Source: an uncultured Planctomycetales bacterium
GTDB taxonomy: Bacteria > Omnitrophota > Gorgyraeia > Zapsychrales > JANLHA01
Direction of reading: 5' to 3'
Length of the DNA stretch: 64,000 nucleotides
Assembly (NCBI GenBank): GCA_964450385.1
Contig: CAYVEC010000009.1
Location: 391 to 64,390 of the forward strand
Part shown: one piece after another, positions 3,156 through 64,000 of the stretch
Numbering within the stretch: the first letter of the stretch is position 1
How the letters are laid out: every line of letters starts with the position of its first letter
Notes under the pieces: generated by a model
What the model was told of the DNA's origin: nothing
The model's database searches: none
What the model saw: only the letters and a program-made list of their open reading frames with translations
Translations under genes and position numbers: made by a program

Positions 3156-4455
3156 GGCCCATCCTCCGCCTCATCCCCTGCCTCTTCTGAACCCCGACGA
3201 ACGCGCGTCCCCGGAGGACCCGGTGGTACGCGACCGCGAACCGATGGGCCTCGTCGCGACACCGCTGAAGGAGCTGCAGCCCGAGCGACCGCGCCGGCAA
3301 CACAACCGGCGCCGCCCGGCCCGGAACAAAGATCTCTTCATGCTGTTTGGCCAGAGAGACGACCGGGATCTCGGCCCCCACATCCTCGAGGGCTTCAACG
3401 GCCGAGGCGAGCTGCCCCTTACCTCCATCGATGACGATCAGATCAGGAAAAACCTTGCGTTCACGCTTCAGGCGGCCATACCGGCGGCGCACAACCTCAG
3501 CGATCATCCGCACATCATCGATCCCGTCGATCGTCCGGATCTTATACCGCCGATACTGCGCCTTATCCGGACGCCCGTTCAAGAACGATACCATGGCCCC
3601 GACACTGTGGTCCCCCATCATCGTTGAAATATCAAAGGTCTCGATCCGCCGCGGGGGATAGACCAACCCCAACAAGCGCTGAAGCTGCTCGGCCTCTTTA
3701 AAATAATTCAGATCCGCGTCAGCCCCCTCCCCTCCGGAGGACGAGAAAAGGGCCCCGAGGGCCCGGAGCTGATCACGATACTTTGCTGCCGCCTCATAGT
3801 CCCGACTCTGCGACGCCCGTTCCATCTGCCGCTCAAGAAGCCGCGAGAGCCGATCCCTCTTCCCTTCGAGAATCCAGCGGATGTGCCGGATATTCCGCTG
3901 ATACTCCGCCCGGGTCTGAACCCCGATGCACGGGGCCCCGCACAGCCCCAGATGAAAATCAAGACAGGCCCGGTCGGGAATCGGATCGCAGGAACGAAAC
4001 GGAAAAATCCGACGGAGGATCCCCAGGGCCTCGCGGATCAGGCGCGGGCTCGTGTAGGGTCCATAATAAAACGACGAACCGGCGCGCGTCCGGGGACGAA
4101 CGATCATGGCGCGCGGGAACTCCTCGCCCGTCACCTCAATCAAGGGATACATCTTATCGTCACGGAGGCTGATGTTGTAATACGGCTGATGCCGCTTGAT
4201 CAGATTCGCCTCCAAAATAAGAGCCTCCGCCTCGCTGTCCGTGACCACGTGATCGATCTGACGGACGCGATGGACCAAAGATTCAGTTTTTGTCGTCTGG
4301 CCGCGGGACCGAAAATACGACCGAACCCGCTGGCGAAGGTCAACGGCCTTGCCGACATAAATCACGGTGCCGGCCTCATCCCGCATCAGATAGACCCCGC
4401 TCTGACGCGGCAGCCCGCTCGCTCGGATTTTAAGCGCCTCGACTGAATCGACCAC
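3148..4455 (-). CDS. uvrC: Excinuclease ABC subunit C, lacking the C-terminal (HhH)2 domain
   Basis: N-terminal GIY-YIG motif (GVYLMRDEAGTVIYVGKAVDLRQRV), a UvrBC-interaction region and an RNase H-like domain (DLIVIDGGKGQL). The ORF stops where the HhH domain normally begins, and its stop overlaps the ogt start by 8 nt. Confidence 0.75.
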   Translation of the reverse strand: MVDSVEALKIRASGLPRQSGVYLMRDEAGTVIYVGKAVDLRQRVRSYFRSRGQTTKTESLVHRVRQIDHVVTDSEAEALILEANLIKRHQPYYNISLRDDKMYPLIEVTGEEFPRAMIVRPRTRAGSSFYYGPYTSPRLIREALGILRRIFPFRSCDPIPDRACLDFHLGLCGAPCIGVQTRAEYQRNIRHIRWILEGKRDRLSRLLERQMERASQSRDYEAAAKYRDQLRALGALFSSSGGEGADADLNYFKEAEQLQRLLGLVYPPRRIETFDISTMMGDHSVGAMVSFLNGRPDKAQYRRYKIRTIDGIDDVRMIAEVVRRRYGRLKRERKVFPDLIVIDGGKGQLASAVEALEDVGAEIPVVSLAKQHEEIFVPGRAAPVVLPARSLGLQLLQRCRDEAHRFAVAYHRVLRGRAFVGVQKRQGMRRRMGRG

Positions 4456-41680: not shown

Positions 41681-43447
41681 CTATTGAACACCGATAAAGA
41701 CAGGCAATACCGATTTTTCCATAACAAAAAGTTGATCGAGCTGCTTTCTTAACTCGGGATCCTGCACAACATCCCCATACTTGTTTAACACCTCACGGGC
41801 ATCATCTTCCCGACCCGCAAGACGTAGGGCCTGGATCAAATAGCCGACCGCCGCATACCCGGGCTTGATCTGACAGGCATTCGTCAGATCGATGATCGCC
41901 TGATCGATATCTTTTTTAGTCAAGGCTAATCGTCCAGCCTGAATGTGTGTCGCAACAATGCCAGGGAAATCCTCAATTGACAAACGATATCGTGACTCTG
42001 CGGCATCCCTCTCACCTCTGGCCTCATGAGCCATGCCGATCGCAAAATCCAATCTCGGATCAACAATGCCCCGACCTTCTGCTTCTGCAGCGTATTTCAA
42101 AACCTCATCCGGGTTGCTGCCCAACTTACTAATACTCAATGCAGCATATAAATACCCTCGACCGTTCCGAGGAAAGTCTCGAATCATGTGCCGAGCAGAA
42201 ACATAATTATTTCTCGTCATTCCTGTTCCAACAAAGGAAAATCCGGCACAAAGCACAAGAACAAACAAAAACAATCGTTCTGCTAAAAGCATCCGACGAC
42301 GAGAAAAAAAACCGTCAAGCCTGTCCAGCAGATACACCCCAACGACAATCAGCCCCACTAAAGGAAGATAAATAAAACGATGGGCAAAAGGAGAGACAAG
42401 GGTGATCACATTTGAGACGGGGGCATAAAAAATGAGGGCCCATATCACCCCAAAAAACATCGACCGGCATTCGAGCATTTTTTTGAAATAAAAAATACCA
42501 GCCCCTAAAATAGCGAGACCAACAACAAGATCCATATTCGTCAAAATCGTATCCACATCTTCGGCAAAAACAGGGGGAAGATACTTAACAGACCACGGAA
42601 AACAAACCACCTTAAAATAATAGCCAGCAATATGGATAATAACCAAGGCGCGCGATAATCGGTCCTGCCCCAACGGATAAAGATAGCGCAAAGCCGAGTT
42701 CGGCAAAACGTAAAAGTAAACAAACAAATAAGATGACAGGATGGCCACATACCCAATGTATTCAAACTTAAATAACTTTATTCTTCTTGACGGGCCATCG
42801 GCCAACAACCAGTCATAAATAAGCACAAATAGCGGCAGGCCTATGGCCGCCTCCTTTGAAAAGACGGCTAAGAAATAAAAAAGCCAAGATAAGCACAACA
42901 TTATCATTCCCTTGCCTCGTCGATAAGAATCGTACGTTAAAAAAGACGCGAGAACGAGACAGGTTGCCAAAAGATCAGCCCGAAACCCTACTGCACAAAC
43001 CGCCTCAACCTGAATCGGATGAACGCCAAAAAGAAGCGCCGACCAAAAGGCCAGGTCTGGCTTAAGTGAAAATACGAGCACGGCGAGACGGTACACGAGA
43101 AAAACATTGAATAAATGAAAAAGAAGATTCGTTAAATGAAACCCAAAGGCGTCCTTCTTCCAGATAGCCGTATCCAAAAAATACGTCAACGATAATACCG
43201 GCCGGTAGGCCACCGAGCCCGTAATATCAGTCTCCTCATTAAAAACCCTTTCCCAATTAGATCCATACTGATTTGTAAATAGAAGCGGGATATTAGAAAG
43301 TGATTCATAAAATGAATTATTCCCGATAATCATCGTATCATCACCAACAACGCCGTTAAACAGGCTCGGCAAAAAAACAACCGCAACCACAATCAAGGCA
43401 ACCCAAATGCTTTTTTTCATGATCACCTTCCCCTGGTTAAAAAACAC
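41681..43447 (-). CDS. GT-C-like polytopic membrane protein with C-terminal TPR repeats (TMTC/PMT_2-DUF1736-like)
   Basis: Acidic motif in the first loop (GDDTMIIGNNSFYE), a YRPVLSLTYFLD motif resembling the YRPL motif of TMTC/DUF1736 proteins, more than 10 TM helices, and C-terminal TPRs. Confidence 0.45.
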   Translation of the reverse strand: MFFNQGKVIMKKSIWVALIVVAVVFLPSLFNGVVGDDTMIIGNNSFYESLSNIPLLFTNQYGSNWERVFNEETDITGSVAYRPVLSLTYFLDTAIWKKDAFGFHLTNLLFHLFNVFLVYRLAVLVFSLKPDLAFWSALLFGVHPIQVEAVCAVGFRADLLATCLVLASFLTYDSYRRGKGMIMLCLSWLFYFLAVFSKEAAIGLPLFVLIYDWLLADGPSRRIKLFKFEYIGYVAILSSYLFVYFYVLPNSALRYLYPLGQDRLSRALVIIHIAGYYFKVVCFPWSVKYLPPVFAEDVDTILTNMDLVVGLAILGAGIFYFKKMLECRSMFFGVIWALIFYAPVSNVITLVSPFAHRFIYLPLVGLIVVGVYLLDRLDGFFSRRRMLLAERLFLFVLVLCAGFSFVGTGMTRNNYVSARHMIRDFPRNGRGYLYAALSISKLGSNPDEVLKYAAEAEGRGIVDPRLDFAIGMAHEARGERDAAESRYRLSIEDFPGIVATHIQAGRLALTKKDIDQAIIDLTNACQIKPGYAAVGYLIQALRLAGREDDAREVLNKYGDVVQDPELRKQLDQLFVMEKSVLPVFIGVQ

Positions 43448-46331
43448 TGTTCACGCGCAGCCAAAATCTAAGGTCATCTTCCGCGTCCCGGACCGGGCGG
43501 GCCGCATCAAGCTGAATCACCGCCTTTTCCAGGAACCCGAGAAGATCAACATGAAACCTCAGCCCGATCCCAATATCTTTCTTTAACGCGGTTTCCGACA
43601 TCGAATCAAACCACGCCTGGCCTGCTTCAGCAAAAATCACCCCGTCAATCCGGCGAAGCCCCACCAAACGGTCAACGGCATAGACGCTCATCTCATTGAT
43701 CAGGGGATATCGGCATTCAATGACACCAAGCGCGGCATTCGCTCCCCGAAGGGACTTGCGCTCATATCCCCTGAGGCCCTCGGCACCCCCGAGCTGAAAA
43801 AGGTCCTTATCATCCGGATACCCGGCGCCGATCTTCGCCCGGAGGGCCACCGTCCCCTGCCTCATCATACGGTGATACCCATGGATGTCAACCCCGCCCC
43901 GCGAAAAATAACTTCCCGCGCCGAACACGTGCCCGGCCTGTTCGGCAACGGCTGTGAGCCGATGCCCCTCCCGGGGATCCGGATACGGGCCCGAACGATT
44001 CCGGTGAAAGGCCATCCCAACAATGGATTCGTGGTCCCGACGGTATTCAATATTCCGAAGGTCTGACGCACCCATGAGCCCCTCATCATATTCATCGGGC
44101 CGCTGATTGTCGACCACATACAGGGTCAAATGGTCCTGGACGTCCAACATCCCATAGGCCGCCGGCCACAGGTCCTGGCGGACATACATCTTCGTGCTGA
44201 TCATATCATCAGGCCCGCCGGTAACGTCCTTGACCCGCCGCCATTCCCCGCCAACATGGGTCGGTGAGGTCCAGAAATTTTTATATTGGAACCCGACCCG
44301 TGATGTGAAGAGCTCGTTCCCGATGTCATAATCGTTGCCGGCATAAAGATAATACTGATACGGCTTTTGCCAGCCCGCTTTTAGCCCCACCCCTTCGTTG
44401 ATCTCCGGGCCGATCACGAGCTGATAGGCGTCATCCGGGACAAAGGCCGGATGATCCCAAAGCCCTAAATACAACCAGACCGGCCTCGCCCGATTCCAGC
44501 GGGGCCACACATTGTTGACCCGGTCCTGATCAAGCGTCTTCTCATCAGGGTCCAGACGCGCCCCCCGCAGTCCGCGGGCAGCCAGGTCGATCGTCGCGGG
44601 AGACGAGCCATCCCAGATAAAACGTTCGGTGCTGCCACTGGCGCCCACAGTCTCAACCTCAACCGGCGCGACAAGGTCTCCGTGCTGCGCGATCTCGAGA
44701 ACCCCTGGGGCGACCCTCCGCAGACAGGGATCATAACGACCCGAACCATAGACCCAATTGCGAAAGAACGCATCAAGGTCCCGGCCCGAGACCTTTTCAC
44801 ACAGCGCCTGAAAATCCGGGATCGACCAGTTCTGATACCGATACCTCGCCATGGCCTCGGCCAAGACAGCGCGCATCGCCGCAGACCCGATCTCGGCCTC
44901 AAGGGCCTCGATCACCCGTTCGCCCTTGCCATAAATCAGCGCGAAGATCTGGCTCGGTTCCGAATACTCATCGAGACGGCGGGCGAGCGGGCCGTCATAC
45001 CCCGCGCGGAGCCCTGCTTTATACCGATAATCGCGGAATCGGCGGAAACTCGGCCGCGGCAGGAGCGGTTCGATCCCTGACAGCCATCGCGGAAACTCGA
45101 GCACCGAGGCATCCTTGCCGTAGCGCTCTTCAATATACTGAAGGGTCAAAAACGAATTGATCCCCTCCTCGAGCCACATCTCGCGTGACGCATCGACCCC
45201 GATCATGTTGTACAGCCACTGGTGCCCGGTCTCATGCGCGATAAGAAAATCAAAATGCCGGTCAAGGATCCCCGGGAGTTTAAAGGCCCGCGTATCAATA
45301 AAAATCATATTCGCCATCTGTTCCCCGCCATAACCAAGATGGACCGCTGCCACGGAAAACTGTTCATAGGGATACGGGGCTTGAAAGATCGCCTCATAAA
45401 AATCCATCGCCGCCTCAGCCGACGCCAACGCGTCAGCCGCGCGATCCTCGTCGCCCTCAAGATAAAACACATACAGATCCGTCTTCCCCCGCCGCACGGA
45501 GAGGTGCTGATACTCTGGACTCGCGCTAAAGGCAAACGCCCGGATCGGCAGAGACGTCGTGATGATCACGCGTTTCTGCCCGCCCGAGGTCTCCTCCCGG
45601 GAACGGACACCCGAATGCGCGACCTGATAATCTTCCGGCACGGTCAACGTCACATCATAAGAGGCCGCGTCCGAATAAAAGGGCCGATGGAACGGATAAA
45701 ATAACCCCTTGTCCCATCCGCTCGCCGCCTGAGCCGCGACGATCGGATACCAATACGCGGCACGCACGACCGACCCATGCCACCCGATCCGGCCATAGGC
45801 ATGCGGGACCCGAAGCCTGAATTTGACCGTCACCTCGATCTGCGCCCCAGGAGCGACCGGCCCAGGAAGGTCAACCCGAAGGAGCGTCTGGTCCGCGCCC
45901 TCAACGGTCCACGGGACCTCATCCCCCGACGCCTCATCAACAACCGCATCAATATAAAAATCTCCGGTGTCAAAACCCTCAGGGTACGGATCGATTTTAA
46001 AATATCCAGCGTATTGAAAGAGCAGACGCTGTTCAGCAGACGTGTAACGGCGGTTCGGATAGATATGAAAATACACGTGATCGATCGGTCCCCCTTGACG
46101 ATTGACCACAACAACACGCTCAACGGCAGAGATCGTCTTGGTCACGGGGTCCCATGCAGCAGAAATATCATAGTGGTGATATGCCTCAGCGCTGACTAAA
46201 CGGACAGAACCGATCAACACGGCCGCGGCCAGCGCCACGACACAGCCGGTCCGGGAGATCAGATCATTCCGTTGCCACATTCTCATGCGACATCGGGCCC
46301 TGCGGCTGACGGAGTTTGGAGAGATATTCAC
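43437..46331 (-). CDS. M1-family zinc aminopeptidase domain fused to a C-terminal Omp85/surface-antigen-D15-like beta-barrel
   Basis: Signal peptide. HExxH-x18-E zinc motif (HETGHQWLYNMIGVDASREMWLEEGINSF). The C-terminal 250 aa show an Omp85-like pattern (FQLGGAEGLRGYERKSLRGANAALGVIECRYPL) and the protein ends with an aromatic residue (...RFWLRVNSVF). Confidence 0.6.
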   Translation of the reverse strand: MNISPNSVSRRARCRMRMWQRNDLISRTGCVVALAAAVLIGSVRLVSAEAYHHYDISAAWDPVTKTISAVERVVVVNRQGGPIDHVYFHIYPNRRYTSAEQRLLFQYAGYFKIDPYPEGFDTGDFYIDAVVDEASGDEVPWTVEGADQTLLRVDLPGPVAPGAQIEVTVKFRLRVPHAYGRIGWHGSVVRAAYWYPIVAAQAASGWDKGLFYPFHRPFYSDAASYDVTLTVPEDYQVAHSGVRSREETSGGQKRVIITTSLPIRAFAFSASPEYQHLSVRRGKTDLYVFYLEGDEDRAADALASAEAAMDFYEAIFQAPYPYEQFSVAAVHLGYGGEQMANMIFIDTRAFKLPGILDRHFDFLIAHETGHQWLYNMIGVDASREMWLEEGINSFLTLQYIEERYGKDASVLEFPRWLSGIEPLLPRPSFRRFRDYRYKAGLRAGYDGPLARRLDEYSEPSQIFALIYGKGERVIEALEAEIGSAAMRAVLAEAMARYRYQNWSIPDFQALCEKVSGRDLDAFFRNWVYGSGRYDPCLRRVAPGVLEIAQHGDLVAPVEVETVGASGSTERFIWDGSSPATIDLAARGLRGARLDPDEKTLDQDRVNNVWPRWNRARPVWLYLGLWDHPAFVPDDAYQLVIGPEINEGVGLKAGWQKPYQYYLYAGNDYDIGNELFTSRVGFQYKNFWTSPTHVGGEWRRVKDVTGGPDDMISTKMYVRQDLWPAAYGMLDVQDHLTLYVVDNQRPDEYDEGLMGASDLRNIEYRRDHESIVGMAFHRNRSGPYPDPREGHRLTAVAEQAGHVFGAGSYFSRGGVDIHGYHRMMRQGTVALRAKIGAGYPDDKDLFQLGGAEGLRGYERKSLRGANAALGVIECRYPLINEMSVYAVDRLVGLRRIDGVIFAEAGQAWFDSMSETALKKDIGIGLRFHVDLLGFLEKAVIQLDAARPVRDAEDDLRFWLRVNSVF

Positions 46332-56760: not shown

Positions 56761-57101
56761 CTCCGCTCCCGCTCCTTAAAAACGATCCACCGATTTGTCA
56801 ACGCCCGATCCACGAGCCCATCGGTCCACCCGCGGACCCGGCGATACATCCTCCAGCCCCAAGGCATCCCGTCGACAAAGCCCAGCATCACCATCATGAC
56901 GCAGCCCCCGCCGATCGCCGCGTCCCAAGCCATTCGTGTGGTCGGCCAGATCCATGAGGCGCACAAAAAAGAGCCGCGCCTGCCCAGACCACGATCACCC
57001 ACGGGCGCCACTCGGTCGTAAAAGGATATTCGGATTCTGTCAGCTTCTCGCTCCCCACGGCTAAGGTCCCCGTAATTCGCGCACAACATCAACCGCCTCA
57101 T
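56751..57101 (-). CDS. Hypothetical protein
   Basis: 116-aa ORF with one hydrophobic segment, filling the gap between the response regulator and the nitroreductase. Weak call. Confidence 0.15.
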   Translation of the reverse strand: MRRLMLCANYGDLSRGEREADRIRISFYDRVAPVGDRGLGRRGSFLCASWIWPTTRMAWDAAIGGGCVMMVMLGFVDGMPWGWRMYRRVRGWTDGLVDRALTNRWIVFKERERRCS

Positions 57102-57705
57102 CGATCCCTCGATTCACCTCGCGCACAAGCTCGCGGGCGAACGCGGTAATCTCGGCATCCGACCGATCCCGATACAAGCCCTCGTCATAACTGAGGAGAA
57201 AATTCTCGCATTTATTCCGAACAACCCCGAGCAGGTTCAACAGCCGATGCGCCGTCTCCCGATCAAGGGCCTGACAAGAGCATTCAGGAAGCACGCCTGG
57301 GCCGCGATCCGCCTGTTCAGACGGCAAATGAGCCGGATGCGTCAGCCGTTCAAGAACACCCCGAAGTTTTTCCAATTTAAGCGGCTTGATAAAATATTCC
57401 GCCACCCCCAGCCGGTAGATCCCTTCGATCTCGGCCGCGGACAAGAGCTGCCCTGTGATCACGACCACCGGGGTCACCTCACCCTTCCCCCGCAGGGTCC
57501 TTAAGACCTCCTGGCCGTTCATGTCCTCAAGGGAAAAATCCAGGACCACCACGTCCGGGCGTTCGACCTCGATGATGACAAGGGCCCGCTGCCCGCTCGC
57601 CGTGGTCAGGACACGAAAGCCGTGACGGGTCAAATACGACTGGAGCACCGAGGCGGTCTCGATCTCGTCCTCCGCGATCAAAATAGTCGGGGCCTCATGA
57701 CTCAT
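57061..57705 (-). CDS. Response regulator (REC domain plus a C-terminal domain of unknown function)
   Basis: Start reassigned to MSHEAPTILIAEDE. The phospho-acceptor Asp lies in VVVLDFSLEDMNG, and the conserved T/K are present (VVVITGQ...KPLK). Confidence 0.7.
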   Translation of the reverse strand: MSHEAPTILIAEDEIETASVLQSYLTRHGFRVLTTASGQRALVIIEVERPDVVVLDFSLEDMNGQEVLRTLRGKGEVTPVVVITGQLLSAAEIEGIYRLGVAEYFIKPLKLEKLRGVLERLTHPAHLPSEQADRGPGVLPECSCQALDRETAHRLLNLLGVVRNKCENFLLSYDEGLYRDRSDAEITAFARELVREVNRGIDEAVDVVRELRGP

Positions 57706-57780
57706 GGAAATCAGTATAACAAAAAATTTTTTGAATAAGGATTTTTTTAAATGGTTCTGCCGGCAGGTCCCGGACACGGC

Positions 57781-58014: not shown

Positions 58015-58362
58015 CTCCGTTTCTGGCCGAAATCGACTCGAGCCAAAACATATCCCACGTCTGCCATGTGTTTCGATTTATTTATGAAGAACAGGGGCTA
58101 AAAGAATTACCATGTGGGGATGTATACGCTGTGTTGCCTTTTCTGCTAAAAAGATACCACCAAATATGACAAAAAACAATCTAGGTAAAATAATTTTGTC
58201 GTATTTAAAAAACCTTATAATTCTTTTATTTTCAATTATTTAAGACTTTGCTCTCATTTTAAAAAATTATTTTTTTATAAAATATGACAAAATAAGTCTA
58301 AAAGTGCCCTGCTTTGGCTTGACATTGAGTCAAAAATGCTCTACCTTTATAGTAAGGGGACA

Positions 58363-58932
58363 ATGATGAAATTATATGAAAAAATCCGAAAGGTCCGCGA
58401 GGATCTCGGGCTTACCCTCCAGGATGTCTATGACCGAGGGGTGGCGGTTTTTGGCGCCGACAAGGCGATCAGCTACCGAACCCTGCAGCGAATCGAACAG
58501 GGACAGCTCGCCAAGTTTTCCTCAGTCCTCAAGATCTGCTGCGCCCTGGGCGTGACCCTGGAAGAGCTCATCCGCGATACCGAGCTCCAGGACCGCATGC
58601 TCATCCGTCAGGATGAACGGGTCGATGAGTACACCTATAACGACCAGGTCCGGGCCAGCATTACAAGCAGTCCGAACCGGAGCTTCCTTGCCCTCGAAAT
58701 GACCCTGGACCCGGGCGGGTCAACGGGCCTGGAGCAGAGCCCCAAAAACAAGCCTTTTGAAAAATGGGTCTACGTGGTGGAGGGCGAGCTCACCTGCCGG
58801 ATCGGCGATGAGTGTTTTGTCCTCACAAAAAAAGATGCGGTGTCCTTCGACAGCAGCATCCCGCACCGCCTCGAGAACGCCTCGCCCAAAAAGTGCGTCT
58901 GCGTCCTCATTCAAAATCCCAAACATTTTTAA
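58363..58932 (+). CDS. XRE-family HTH plus cupin-domain transcriptional regulator
   Basis: Start at ATGATG (58363) with an AGGGGA RBS. HTH region (LQDVYDRGVAVFGADKAISYRTLQRIEQG) and a C-terminal cupin domain (WVYVVEGELTCRIGDECFVLTKKDAVSFDSSIPHRLEN). Confidence 0.75.
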   Translation: MMKLYEKIRKVREDLGLTLQDVYDRGVAVFGADKAISYRTLQRIEQGQLAKFSSVLKICCALGVTLEELIRDTELQDRMLIRQDERVDEYTYNDQVRASITSSPNRSFLALEMTLDPGGSTGLEQSPKNKPFEKWVYVVEGELTCRIGDECFVLTKKDAVSFDSSIPHRLENASPKKCVCVLIQNPKHF

Positions 58933-59711
58933 CCGCGCCCGGCACGGGGCGCCTTGTATTTTCCGATACTAATGAGAACGGCCTTGAGCTTTTCATTCAA
59001 CGCGGCAAGGGAGACGGGTTTTTCAAGATAATCCGCGGCGCCCATGGCCACCGCCTGGCTCACGACCTCGGCGCTCGTCCACGCGCTGATCACCACGATC
59101 CGTGAAAGAGGGCTGATCCGGCGCATCTCGCGGATCACCTCCATCCCGCCGAGCCCCGGCATCTTAATATCAAGGAGGATCACATCCGGCGGGCAGTCGC
59201 GAGCGCTCACGAGGGCCGTCTCGCCGTCAGAGGCCTGATTGAGCACGCACTCATAGCGCGGCGAAATGAATTCTTGGACCGTGGACCGAAAGGCCGCATC
59301 GTCATCCACAATGAGGATCACCGGCATCTCGCCCCTGCCGCCTTGGTTCAACAAAGCCCCGATCTTCTCAACAACGACATCGCGAAGGTAATTCCGGCTG
59401 AAAGGCTTCCGGATCCATTCATCCGCCCCGGCGAGCGCCGACGACGACCGCGCCGCCTCTTCCGATTCGGCCGTGATCATGATAACGACCGCCCCCAGAT
59501 CTCCCGCCTTGATCCGTCGGATGAGATCGATCCCGTCACCGTCGGGCATCGCGCGATCGACAAAAATGATCCGCGGACGCTCCTCCCCTGCCATCCTGAG
59601 CGCGCTCTCGGCATCCTCGGCGGTCAACACCGAAAAACCGATATACGTGAACGTAGTTCGGATCGCGTCACACACGCCCGATTCCCGGCCGACGACCAAA
59701 ATCTTGATCAT
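58929..59711 (-). CDS. Response regulator with two tandem REC domains and no output domain
   Basis: REC1 Asp in IIFVDRAMPDGDG, REC2 Asp in VILLDIKMPGLGG. Overlaps the XRE gene end by 4 nt on the opposite strand. Confidence 0.7.
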   Translation of the reverse strand: MIKILVVGRESGVCDAIRTTFTYIGFSVLTAEDAESALRMAGEERPRIIFVDRAMPDGDGIDLIRRIKAGDLGAVVIMITAESEEAARSSSALAGADEWIRKPFSRNYLRDVVVEKIGALLNQGGRGEMPVILIVDDDAAFRSTVQEFISPRYECVLNQASDGETALVSARDCPPDVILLDIKMPGLGGMEVIREMRRISPLSRIVVISAWTSAEVVSQAVAMGAADYLEKPVSLAALNEKLKAVLISIGKYKAPRAGRG

Positions 59712-59752: not shown

Positions 59753-61540
59753 TCACGTACCCGGTGTATCGTTCTGCCGATCATGGTACTTCGTGTGAAG
59801 AAGATGATGGCTTTTCGGCCCGCACGGGCCTTCGGTCAAGAACTCGTCATAGAGTTTCTTGATCGAGGGATTCTCATGCGACTTGCGGATCGCCTTGCCT
59901 TCGTCTTCCTTATAAATGGCATTGATCCTGGCCTCGCGCACCGAATCATCCGTGAACCTCGGCTGACCTCCGCCGCCGATACATCCGCCGGGGCAGGTCA
60001 TGACCTCGACAAAATGATACGACGCCTCCCCGGCCTTGATGCGGTCAAGCAGGGCCGCCGCGTTTGAAAGGCTATGCGCGACCGCCACCCGCATCTCAAC
60101 GCCTTCCAAAAACGACCAGGCCGGTAACGCCCCTTCGATCTTCAGACTCGCCTCTTTCATCCCCTTCAGCCCAGCGAGAGGACGCACATGGAGATTCTCC
60201 ATCGGCAGCGGCCGGCCCGTGACGATTTCATAAACGGTACGGATCGCAGCCTCCATGACCCCACCGGTATTAGCAAAGATATCCGCCGCCCCGGATGAAC
60301 GCCCCAAGGGATCGTCCATGGTCCCGTCGGGAAGACGCTCAAAATTGATCCCAGCGGCCTGGATCATCCGCCCGAGCTCGCGGGTCGTAAGGACATAATC
60401 CACATCCCGGAATCCGCTGCTCGTCATTTCCGGCCGCGCCGCCTCAAACTTTTTAGCGGTGCACGGCATGACCGAGACCACGACCATACGCGCGGGATCG
60501 ATCCCCTTTTGCTGCGCGTAAAACGTCTTGGCAAGGGCACCGAACATCTGCTGCGGCGACTTGCACGACGAGAGGTTCGGAAGGAATTCCGGATAAAAAT
60601 GCTCGGTGAATTTAATCCACCCCGGCGAACAGCTTGACAACTGTGGCAGGGCCACCGGCTGATGATCGACCAGCGCGCGCTTGAGACGAAGCAGGAGCTC
60701 CGTTCCCTCCTCAAGGATGGTGAGGTCCGCGGTGAAATTCGTATCAAAAACCGCGTCAAATCCCATCTGCCTGAGGGCCGTGACCATCTTGCCGGTCACG
60801 AGGGTGCCCGGCGGCAGTCCAAAACACTCCCCCAGGGCCGCGCGGATCGCCGGCGCCGTCTGCACAACAACGAATTTTTCCGGGTCGTCAAGCGCGGCGA
60901 GGACCTGCTTCTCATGGCTGCGCTCGATGATCGCGCCCACCGGACAAACCGCGGCGCACTGCCCGCACTGGACACACGCGACCTCATCAAGTCCTAGCGC
61001 AAAGGCCGGACCGATCACGGTATCATACCCGCGGTTCTGAGGAAAGAGAACCCCGACGCGCTGAACCTCATTGCAAACAGTGACGCACCGCCGGCATTTA
61101 ATACATTTTCCCGAATCCCGCACCAGGGCCGGAGACGAATCATCGACGATCCGCTCAGGCCGCTCACCCCCATACCGCGGCTCACGGATCCCAAGCTCAT
61201 TCGCCAAGGCCTTGAGTTCGCAGTCTTCACTACGGTCGCAGTATTGACAATCGCCCTCATGCTCGCTCAGAAGCATCTCAACGACCATGGTCCGCGCGTC
61301 GCGCACCCGCTTGCTGTTGGTGTGGATGACCATCCCTTCGCTCACCGGGGTCGAACACGAGGCCGCCAAATTCCGCCCGCCCTCAACCTCAACAACACAG
61401 ACCCGGCACGCCCCAAGCGGAGGCTTCCCCTGCAAAAAACAGAGCGTCGGAATCTCGATACCGACCTGCCGGGCTGCGTCCAGGATCATCGTTCCAGGAG
61501 GGACCTCAACCGTCTGCTGATTGATGATTACCTTGGTCAT
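59753..61540 (-). CDS. hydA: [FeFe]-hydrogenase catalytic subunit (M3-type, HydA)
   Basis: N-terminal 2Fe-2S ferredoxin motif, a His-ligated 4Fe-4S ([14 protein letters not shown]), two 4Fe-4S ferredoxin motifs ([22 protein letters not shown]), and H-cluster motifs L2 ([11 protein letters not shown]) and L3 ([16 protein letters not shown]). L1 is non-canonical, SSCSPGW instead of TSCCPxW. Confidence 0.85.
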
Positions 61541-64000
61541 GATTCATCTCCCCCTTTCGCAGACGGGCACTTGCCGTAATCGCACCGCAGGCACCGCCGG
61601 GCCTGACGCCGGGCCACGGCCTCATTCCAAGACTGTTCGACCTCATCAAAATTGTGGCGGCGCCGGCCAACGTCCAAGAGCTGCATCTTTTCGCGCGGAT
61701 ATGGAACCGGGTCCGCGTCAGGGTCAAAATCCGTTTTGACCTCCTGTGCCTCCCGCCAAAAGGCGTGTTCCGCACCGGTAAAATACCGGTCGATCCCGAC
61801 CGCGGCGCGTTCCCCCGAGGCGATCGCCATCACGACCGACGACGGCCCCATCATCGCGTCCCCTCCGGCAAAGACCCCTTCGATCGAGGTCTGACCGTAG
61901 ACCGGATCGGCCTCGATAAACTTTCGGGAGGAAAGACGGATATCCGTTCCTCGGCTCAGGGTCTCCGTCCGGATCGCCTGCCCGATCGCGATGATCACCT
62001 GATCCACCGGAACATCGATCATGTCTTCCGGATTCGCCGTCGGACGGCGGCGCCCGGTCTGGTCAAAATCCCCAAGCCGCATCCGGACACAACGGAGATT
62101 CGAGACCCGGCCCTCAGCGTCTTTTTGAATCTCAACGGGATGGGTGAGCGGCTGGATCCGAACCCCTTCATGGACCGCCTCCTCCACCTCCTCGGCATAG
62201 GCCGGCATCTCATTCTGGCTCCGTCGGTACATCACCGTCACCTCTTCGGCCCCGAGCCGCAAGGCGCTGCGCGCGGCATCAATGGCAGCATTCCCTCCGC
62301 CGATGACCACAACGCGGCGGCCCACCGGAACAGACCCGCGGATATTATACGTGCGTAAAAATTCCAAGGCATCAACAACGCCCTGGGCATCCTCCCCGTC
62401 AACACCAAGGCGCGTGCTCTCCGGAGCCCCGACACCGATAAAGACCGCCTCATAACCCTGGGCCTTCAGGTCCTCGATCGTAAAATCCCGCCCGAGGGCC
62501 TTGCCGGTCTCGATATCAACGCCAAGCCGCTCGATCATCCGGATCTCGCGCGCCAAAGTTTCGCGCGGCAGACGGTAGGCCGGAATCGTCTGAACGAGCA
62601 TCCCGCCGGGCCGAGACTCCTTCTCAAAGACCTTGGGCCGATACCCAAGCCGCGCCAAAAAATACGCGCATGCGAGCCCGGCCGGACCCGCGCCCACGAT
62701 CGCGATCCGCCGCCCCGCGTTCTTTTCGTCCTGACGGACCTCGGGAAGCTGGACCACGACCTCCTGGTCCACCATGAACCGTTTGACCCCGCGGATCGAG
62801 ACCGCAGCATCCAGGGTCGCCCGACGGCATTTATCCTCACAGGTATGAAAACAGACACGCGCGCAGACAGCAGCAAAGGGATTCCGCTCACGATGGAGCT
62901 TGAGGGCCTCGGCGTAGCGCTGTTCTCCGGTGAGCCCGACGAATCCCGGGACATCAACCCCTGCCGGACAGGCGCTCTGACACGGCGCGCGGACGAGGTC
63001 CGGACACACCCCGGCCTCGCAATGCTTGTCCCGGATATGCTGTTCGTATTCTTTCAAAAAATACCGCAGCGTGGACCGGACAGGGTTCGCGGAGGTATAG
63101 CCGAGCCCGCAGAGCGAGGCATCCTTGATCTGCATCCCGAGCTGGAACAGGCGTTCAATGTCCTCCGGCTCCCCCTTGTCCTGACAGATCTTCTCCAAGA
63201 TCTCAAGCATCCGCTTCGACCCGACGCGGCACGGCACGCATTTGCCGCACGACTCCTCCTGAACAAACTCCAGAAAGAACCGCGCCACGTCGACCATGCA
63301 GGCATCATCGTCAATCACAATGAGTCCACCCGAGCCCATGATCGCGCCGAGCTCAACCAGGGTGTCATAATCAAGCGGGACGTTGAGGTGCTCGCGAGGA
63401 ATGCACCCCCCCGACGGGCCTCCGATCTGGGCCGCCTTGAAGGATTTACCGTTTTTAACGCCTCCGCCGATATCAAAAACAAGCTCGCCAAGCGGCGTCC
63501 CGATCGGGACCTCAACAAGCCCAGAATTATTCACCGCACCGGCGAGGGCAAAGACCTTGGTCCCTTTACTTTTCTCACTCCCCATCAAGGCGTACCATTC
63601 AGGCCCGTTCAAGATAATCGCCGGGACATTGACATAGGTCTCAACATTATTGAGCAGACTCGGCCGTCCCCACAGACCAGACTGCGCCGGAAACGGCGGA
63701 CGGGGCCGCGGTTCACCGCGCCTCCCCTCGAGCGAGGCCATGAGCGCCGTCTCCTCCCCGCAGACAAAGGCCCCGGACCCCATACGGATATCGAGATCAA
63801 AGGCGAATCCAGAACCCAGAATGTTCTCACCAAGAAGCCCGGCGGTCCGCGCCTGCTCGATCGCGGCCGTGAGCCGCGAGACCGCGAGCGGATATTCTGC
63901 ACGGACATACACATACCCCTGCCGCGCGCCGATCGCAAAGGCTGCGATCGTCATCCCCTCAATGACGCTGTGAGGATCACCTTCAAGAACGCTCCGGTTC
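61537..64000 (-). CDS. NuoF-like NAD(P)H/FMN/4Fe-4S subunit fused to a GltD-like FAD/NAD(P)H oxidoreductase domain (5' end beyond the window)
   Basis: The reading frame stays open past 63954 to the window edge (..[19 protein letters not shown], a NuoF motif). FMN/NADH regions and the 4Fe-4S motif (CGKCVPCR) are followed by extra Cys clusters and two Rossmann GxGxxG motifs ([36 protein letters not shown]) as in glutamate synthase small subunits. Overlaps the hydA start by 4 nt. Confidence 0.8.

Follow-up and report, generated by a model that had tools for sequence, protein, structure and literature searches.

The 64,000-nucleotide stretch of DNA analysed here (the window) comes from an uncultured Planctomycetales bacterium and encodes an [FeFe]-hydrogenase catalytic subunit, HydA, in which one of the two adjacent cysteines of the L1 motif of the H-cluster is replaced by a serine, Ser305. 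We conclude that HydA is very probably the H2-activating subunit of a multimeric, flavin-linked HydABC-type [FeFe]-hydrogenase, that it belongs to the clade named 'group A6', which includes HydA1 of Acetobacterium woodii, and that it is normal-looking and predicted to be catalytic. Judged from sequence, the variant touches cluster ligation and not proton transfer, and the change from cysteine to serine is an old polymorphism of the clade, kept by selection and nearly neutral, neither a defect nor a sensory adaptation. The serine-for-cysteine variant is already a published natural trait and brings no new chemistry. The assignment draws on what is demonstrated for HydA (motif identity, family membership, conservation, absence of covariation and the behaviour of a characterised homologue); the activity of HydA is predicted by analogy with that homologue.

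The L1 serine and the H-cluster

HydA scores 511.1 bits against TIGR02512 (group A [FeFe]-hydrogenase, cutoff 405.95) and 866 bits against the NCBIfam model NF040763 ('NADH-dependent [FeFe] hydrogenase, group A6', cutoff 765), the latter match spanning positions 2–571 of the 571 in the profile. Pfam identifies Fe_hyd_lg_C (PF02906, E = 5.4e-94) and Fe_hyd_SSU (PF02256, E = 1.9e-25), with Fer2_4, NADH-G_4Fe-4S_3 and Fer4 (Fer4_7, Fer4_Nqo3) in the N-terminal part. The top solved homologue is A. woodii HydA1 (7q4v_A, E = 3e-182 by phmmer), and HydA1 of Thermoanaerobacter kivui (PDB 8A6T) matches with E = 7.5e-179. An AlphaFold2 model, a check proposed in the first-pass annotation (a reading of the letters and open reading frames alone), gives a confident [FeFe]-hydrogenase fold with a predicted local distance difference test score (pLDDT) of 93.7 and can be superposed on the HydA1 proteins of T. 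kivui and A. woodii at template modelling (TM) scores of 0.90–0.96, including 0.92 to 8a6t_A.

That annotation had described a non-canonical L1, SSCSPGW, with one of the adjacent cysteines changed to serine, together with canonical L2 and L3, and all three motifs are present as it read them (Table 1): L2 matches the pattern MPCxxKxxE and L3 the pattern ExMxCxxGCxxGGGQ. It had also asked which cysteine is retained. No indel separates the conserved S-C from P-G-W in the phmmer alignments of HydA to Clostridium pasteurianum CpI, T. kivui HydA1 and A. woodii HydA1; CpI C299 pairs with Cys304, C300 with Ser305 and A321 with Cys326, and the earlier alignment was therefore not shifted. HydA departs from the strict L1 consensus TSCCPxW in that the proton-relay cysteine, Cys304, is kept and the cubane-ligand cysteine has become Ser305. 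The residues E279, E282, R286 and S319 of the CpI proton pathway correspond to E278, E281, R285 and S324 of HydA, and these columns are nearly invariant in an alignment of 55 sequences. The suggestion that the variant might alter proton transfer or cluster ligation is thus upheld for ligation, Ser305 being the counterpart of CpI C300, and not for proton transfer, as Cys304 and all four pathway residues are conserved.

The arrangement that we propose follows the published structure of the A. woodii enzyme. One of the cubane ligands of the A1-cluster in T. kivui HydA1, Cys299, corresponds to Ser301 in A. woodii HydA1 (Katsyv et al. 2023, PMC10021017), and Ser301 is described there as an A1-cluster ligand, with the H-cluster's Fourier-transform infrared (FTIR) vibrational signature apparently unaffected (PMC10021017). 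By analogy with that model, Ser305 itself would ligate iron in HydA: the [4Fe-4S] subcluster of the H-cluster would be held by Cys360, Cys516, the bridging Cys520 and the hydroxyl of Ser305 in place of a fourth cysteine. Cys304 would relay protons to the diiron site through the intact Glu278, Ser324, Glu281 and Arg285 pathway, and the clusters of the N-terminal Fe-S domain (F-domain) would hand electrons to the adjacent HydB flavoprotein. The A. woodii complex, AwHydABC, is active, bidirectional and electron-bifurcating at 4.1 U/mg (PMC10021017). Strict identity to the L1 consensus is unnecessary for function, because A. woodii HydA1 deviates in the same way and is biochemically active. The motif TSCSPGW was pointed out in hydrogenases of Melainabacteria in 2013 (PMC3787301).

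The same position has been engineered in CrHydA1, where C170, which sits in a flexible loop (PMC5855289), was changed to serine. The C170S enzyme keeps its cubane, takes up the [2Fe] subcluster slowly and evolves H2 (Kertess et al. 2017, PMC5855289), at 231 versus 728 µmol/min/mg after 30 h of maturation (PMC5855289). C170S is thus the laboratory equivalent of the natural Ser305; it stays active but is slow to mature and loses activity; the natural serine enzymes, by contrast, have evolved with the serine.

HydA can be compared with the solved enzymes at several levels. A. woodii HydA1 (PDB 7Q4V, 7Q4W, 8A5E) shares the M3 domain architecture, an L1 of the form (T/S)SCSPGW, the SSCKSPQ stretch and canonical L2 and L3, and its fold agrees at TM 0.90–0.92 with 49% identity in the Foldseek alignment; however, only about half of the residues are identical. 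T. kivui HydA1 (8A6T) is alike in family, fold (TM 0.92/0.96), proton pathway, L2 and L3 but has a canonical L1 (TSCCPSW) with Cys299 as cubane ligand and an alanine at the 326 position (STARSPQQ). CpI and CrHydA1 share the H-domain, the H-cluster ligands and the proton pathway (CrHydA1 also the cysteine at the 326 position), yet unlike the window HydA they are monomeric, ferredoxin-dependent and have all-cysteine ligation of the cubane.

Four points weigh against our assignment. No hydE, hydF or hydG maturase gene was seen in the ~24 kb of the neighbourhood that was scanned with Pfam (40.2–64 kb of the window). The Ser-O to Fe ligation comes from a 3.4 Å electron cryo-microscopy (cryo-EM) model of a homologue that is 49–53% identical (PMC10021017), a resolution that cannot prove a bond. 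TkHydABC, which has the two adjacent cysteines, reaches 20.5 U/mg against the 4.1 U/mg of AwHydABC (PMC10021017), and the serine may therefore have a quantitative effect. Finally, HydB carries a GltD-like fusion, and the enzyme may on that account catalyse a different physiological reaction from that of A. woodii.

Distribution of the serine and competing explanations

Among the nearest 120 clusters at 90% identity (70–100% identical to HydA), 119 combine the Cys-Ser form of L1 (CS-type) with Cys326, and one combines it with alanine. A codon survey of 44 related hydA genes at 43 loci, drawn from a collection of one genome per species, found serine at the ligand position in 37 and cysteine in seven. 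The 37 serine codons are TCG (24), TCA (6), TCT (4), TCC (2) and AGC (1), and the loci that bear them come from Omnitrophota, Verrucomicrobiota, Spirochaetota, Bacteroidota and other phyla. The closest locus in the collection is 85% identical, and the nearest relatives are Omnitrophota and Planctomycetales metagenome-assembled genomes (MAGs). Three loci with the cysteine (L007, L008 and L014; 67–70% identical; Verrucomicrobiota and Kiritimatiellaeota) have the same type of operon as the window, hydC-hydB::gltD-hydA. At the cubane-ligand position, cysteine (TGC/TGT) and serine (five codons) thus replace one another in loci that share an operon type and an NCBIfam family, at only 67–70% overall identity, which suggests that the exchange has been repeated or reversible in nature. 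NF040763 is passed by the enzymes with two adjacent cysteines (CC-type) of L007 (885 bits) and L014 (881 bits) and by the CS-type proteins with alanine at the 326 position P0123 and P0061; since CC-type, CS-type with alanine and CS-type with cysteine all pass it, the L1 variant is a polymorphism within the family. In a neighbour-joining (NJ) tree of 129 H-domains the clade that contains HydA is CS-type in 14 of 17 members with CC-type sequences interspersed, although the NJ/Fitch estimate of the number of changes is crude.

The codon spread, the cluster counts and the interspersed tree together argue that Ser305 is old, maintained by selection, no error and exchangeable with cysteine in the clade. 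The serine is the majority state of a large and phylogenetically broad clade and switches with cysteine inside it, which suggests that, of the four H-cluster cysteines, this one tolerates exchange best in nature, just as it does in mutagenesis. A large survey of bifurcating hydrogenases dropped HytA homologues without a strict L1 TSCCPxW (PMC6085437); such filters, applied to HydA, would lose the serine clade, including the validated A. woodii HydA1.

Several other explanations have to be set against this one. A sequencing or assembly error at the Ser305 codon has next to no chance of being correct; the first-pass annotation had already noted that TCG lies two mutations from a cysteine codon (TGY), which holds, and the serine recurs: 119 of the nearest 120 clusters share it, and 37 independent genomes encode it, with five codons among them. 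It had also raised sensory-like or unidirectional behaviour, and a non-catalytic, sensory-like or degenerate paralogue could explain why L1 departs from the TSCCPxW consensus used as a survey filter (PMC6085437) and why response-regulator genes lie directly downstream of hydA (58929–59711 and 57061–57777). We nevertheless judge it extremely improbable. Pfam detects no PAS or other sensor domain in HydA; L2, L3, the relay cysteine and the whole proton pathway are conserved; hydA is translationally coupled to the gene for the HydB flavoprotein; and the nearest characterised homologue, with the same motifs, is catalytic, bidirectional and spectroscopically typical (PMC10021017). Groups C and B do not fit either. 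Enzymes of the sensory group C (HydS-type) have a C-terminal PAS/sensor domain and a non-conserved proton pathway, and we rejected this group for HydA, in which Pfam finds no such domain and the pathway is fully conserved. Group B is excluded too: group B2 is defined by TSCCCP, with a third adjacent cysteine, a motif that is absent from HydA, whose L1 is SSCSPGW, and HydA scores 169.5 bits against TIGR04105 (B1), for which the cutoff is 450.

More attention is due to Cys326, which the first-pass annotation regarded as compensatory. It was right that an extra cysteine occupies the position of CpI Ala321; the spacing that it gave, 18 residues, is however the distance from the L1 tryptophan, and the residue lies 21 after the serine. 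A swap of ligands, in which Cys326 supplies the fourth thiolate of the [4Fe-4S]H cubane and makes up for the lost L1 cysteine, would account for its occurrence with Ser305 in 119 of 120 close homologues and in A. woodii HydA1, where its counterpart is Cys322, and cryo-EM at 3.4 Å could not by itself exclude another ligand. We consider the swap highly unlikely, and rejected Cys326 as a compensatory residue, on the following observations: among the 50%-identity cluster representatives that an exhaustive HMMER search yielded, cysteine at the 326 position is just as typical of canonical H-domains (52 of 86 CC-type versus 11 of 15 CS-type, Fisher p = 0.40), cysteine is the commonest residue there in canonical TSCCP enzymes and the alanine of CpI a minority residue, the canonical model enzyme CrHydA1 combines TSCCPGW with SSCKSPQ and so has the cysteine, and full-length CS-type enzymes with alanine (P0061, 71% identical, P0123, P0165 and P0185) keep L2, L3 and the proton pathway, P0061 and P0123 also passing NF040763. 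No cysteine column specific to CS-type sequences was found when all alignment columns were checked, and the published A. woodii model assigns the serine as ligand (PMC10021017). Cys326 is simply the commonest residue at that site in group-A hydrogenases. The remaining alternative accepts the serine as ligand and gives it an adaptive role, in which it would move the potential of [4Fe-4S]H and through this the catalytic bias (toward H2 evolution, for instance), or change maturation or the behaviour toward O2, so that the kinetics of the clade would be functionally distinct. This is unlikely, though less so than the others. The C170 variants of CrHydA1 tended toward H2 evolution and inserted [2Fe] more slowly (PMC5855289), synonymous codon turnover indicates that the serine is maintained by selection, AwHydABC is ~5-fold less active than TkHydABC (PMC10021017), and there is mild co-variation, with glycine at L1+2 in 87% of CS-type and 37% of CC-type sequences. 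The natural serine enzyme is, on the other hand, bidirectional with an FTIR signature indistinguishable from the canonical one (PMC10021017), and the interleaving of CC- and CS-type sequences in one clade, at 67–70% identity and with the same operon, suggests near-neutral exchange.

We also note that at locus L040 one of the two HydA copies has TSCSPGW with an alanine at the 326 position.

The HydB-GltD fusion

The gene upstream of hydA encodes a NuoF-like HydB with a GltD/NfnB-like module fused to its C-terminus. The end of hydB overlaps the start of hydA by 4 bases, and its frame is open to the end of the window; the full protein on the source contig (P0274) has 1046 amino acids, of which the last 820 are identical to the window translation. 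Pfam finds Complex1_51K, SLBB and NADH_4Fe-4S, which make up the NuoF part with its flavin mononucleotide (FMN)/NADH site and N3-type [4Fe-4S] cluster, followed by Fer4_20 and Pyr_redox_2. The best PDB match of the window HydB is A. woodii HydB (E = 1e-158, residues 1–337), with the GltD modules of Stn/NfnABC A subunits matching residues 337–811. The alignment to A. woodii HydB ends at residue 543 of 599, no CxxCxxCxxxC motif occurs in P0274, and NADH_4Fe-4S leads straight into the Fer4_20 and Pyr_redox_2 of the GltD-like module; P0274 lacks the C-terminal 2x[4Fe-4S] ferredoxin domain of HydB proteins. Its GltD-like module has a flavin adenine dinucleotide (FAD) motif and a second motif fitting GxGxxA, which has been taken as a sign of NADP(H) binding (Kremp et al., PMC7483475).

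The resemblance to A. woodii extends to the NuoF-like HydB encoded alongside, the core of which is the top PDB hit for the window HydB, but A. woodii HydB terminates in a small ferredoxin-binding domain with 2x[4Fe-4S] where the window HydB has a GltD/NfnB-like FAD/NADPH module of ~490 residues instead. The C-terminal domain of HydB is the proposed ferredoxin-binding site (PMC10021017), and its 2x[4Fe-4S] clusters belong to the conserved BfuBC cofactor set (PMC9304861). Since this domain is replaced, membership of the bifurcating Bfu family is not established for the window enzyme. The combination of NuoE-like, NuoF-like and GltD/NfnB-like NADPH-FAD modules is known from the Stn/Nfn-Bfu enzymes (S. 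ovata StnABC; NfnABC; for example PDB 9BOV, 9N5U, 8OH5), whose A subunits match the GltD part of the window HydB over residues ~101–574 with E down to 4e-112. In those enzymes, however, the GltD module is fused to a NuoG-like subunit that has no H-cluster, whereas in the window the C-terminus of HydB carries it, alongside a complete H-cluster subunit. We found no published HydB::GltD fusion with a true HydA, only the Stn/Nfn-Bfu enzymes, a weak negative given that many subscription papers lay outside the search.

The hydC-hydB::gltD-hydA operon, with a fusion of ~1045 amino acids, recurs in ~30 loci spread over at least six phyla (Omnitrophota, Spirochaetota, Verrucomicrobiota, Kiritimatiellia, Bacteroidota and Thermodesulfobacteriota are among the sources, and a Peptococcaceae MAG has a split form). 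In orthologous loci hydB has a NuoE-like hydC directly upstream, as at 4304–4870 of L001 (2Fe-2S_thioredx, E = 8e-50); the hydC of the operon studied here would lie past the end of the window. At least 120 clusters of proteins contain the fusion, and most of them carry no annotation beyond 'NuoF'.

We regard the fusion as a more promising lead than the serine; it points to a hydrogenase connected to both pools of pyridine nucleotides. A link to NAD(H) and NADP(H) alike is a reasonable guess from the domains present, and the enzyme may work in this way. We tentatively go one step further, to a proposal that we hold to be possible but doubtful: the serine-type HydA would be the catalytic subunit of a very widespread, uncharacterised variant of HydABC in which an NfnB/GltD-like module carrying 2x[4Fe-4S], FAD and a site of the NADP(H) type takes the place of HydB's C-terminal ferredoxin-binding domain, H2 would be coupled to both NAD(H) and NADP(H), independently of ferredoxin or else by means of a second bifurcating flavin of the Nfn kind, and the evolutionarily labile Cys/Ser ligand could tune [4Fe-4S]H to this chain. 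NAD(H) would then bind at the FMN of the NuoF part, which has an ADEGDPG-type loop, and NADP(H) at the FAD of the GltD part (GxGxxA).

Tandem hydrogenase-type gene sets are seen at L005, L028–L030 and L040. At L028–L030 a gene of the HydB::GltD type adjoins a standard hydC-hydB-hydA set, and L005 and L040 have two HydA copies each.

Feature coordinates and neighbouring genes

Table 1. Coordinates in the window of hydA, its motifs and neighbouring genes
Feature	Position	Strand	Basis
hydA, M3-type [FeFe]-hydrogenase catalytic subunit, 595 amino acids	59753..61540	minus	Open reading frame list, Pfam, NCBIfam, PDB
HydA F-domain: [2Fe-2S] ferredoxin-like (3–76), NuoG-type 4Fe-4S region (83–122), two [4Fe-4S] (~139–213)	60902..61534	minus	Pfam
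Proton-pathway stretch EEGTELLLR, residues 277–285 (E278, E281, R285)	60686..60712	minus	Alignment to CpI
L1 motif SSCSPGW, residues 302–308	60617..60637	minus	Gap-free alignment to CpI, T. kivui HydA1, A. woodii HydA1
Cys304 codon TGT	60629..60631	minus	
Ser305 codon TCG	60626..60628	minus	Codon read from window sequence
Ser324 codon (proton pathway)	60569..60571	minus	
Cys326 codon TGC, at CpI Ala321 position	60563..60565	minus	Alignment to CpI
L2 motif MPCTAKKFE, residues 358–366, canonical; Cys360 = cubane ligand	60443..60469	minus	C360 invariant in alignment
L3 motif, residues 512–527, canonical; Cys516 = cubane ligand, Cys520 = bridging ligand	59960..60007	minus	C516, C520 invariant in alignment
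hydB (NuoF-like flavoprotein) fused to C-terminal GltD/NfnB-like FAD/NADPH module	61537..64000, runs off window end	minus	Pfam, PDB
Response regulator, 260 amino acids	58929..59711	minus	
HTH-cupin regulator	58336..58932	plus	
Second single-receiver protein, 238 amino acids	57061..57777	minus	
Peptidase_M1 (302–526) and Omp85-superfamily domain (663–925), 964 amino acids	43437..46331	minus	

The gene directly downstream of hydA encodes a response regulator with two receiver domains and no output domain, and beyond it lie a divergently oriented helix-turn-helix (HTH)-cupin regulator and the gene for a second, single-receiver protein. At L001, an 84%-identical Omnitrophota locus, a Rex-like redox repressor is located upstream of the hydrogenase operon and a CMD-family protein and HydF downstream. 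Because the window has the receiver and HTH-cupin genes and L001 has the Rex-like, CMD-family and HydF genes, the regulatory context differs among close relatives. Further away in the window, the product of 43437–46331 looks like an unusual fusion of a protease with an outer-membrane barrel.

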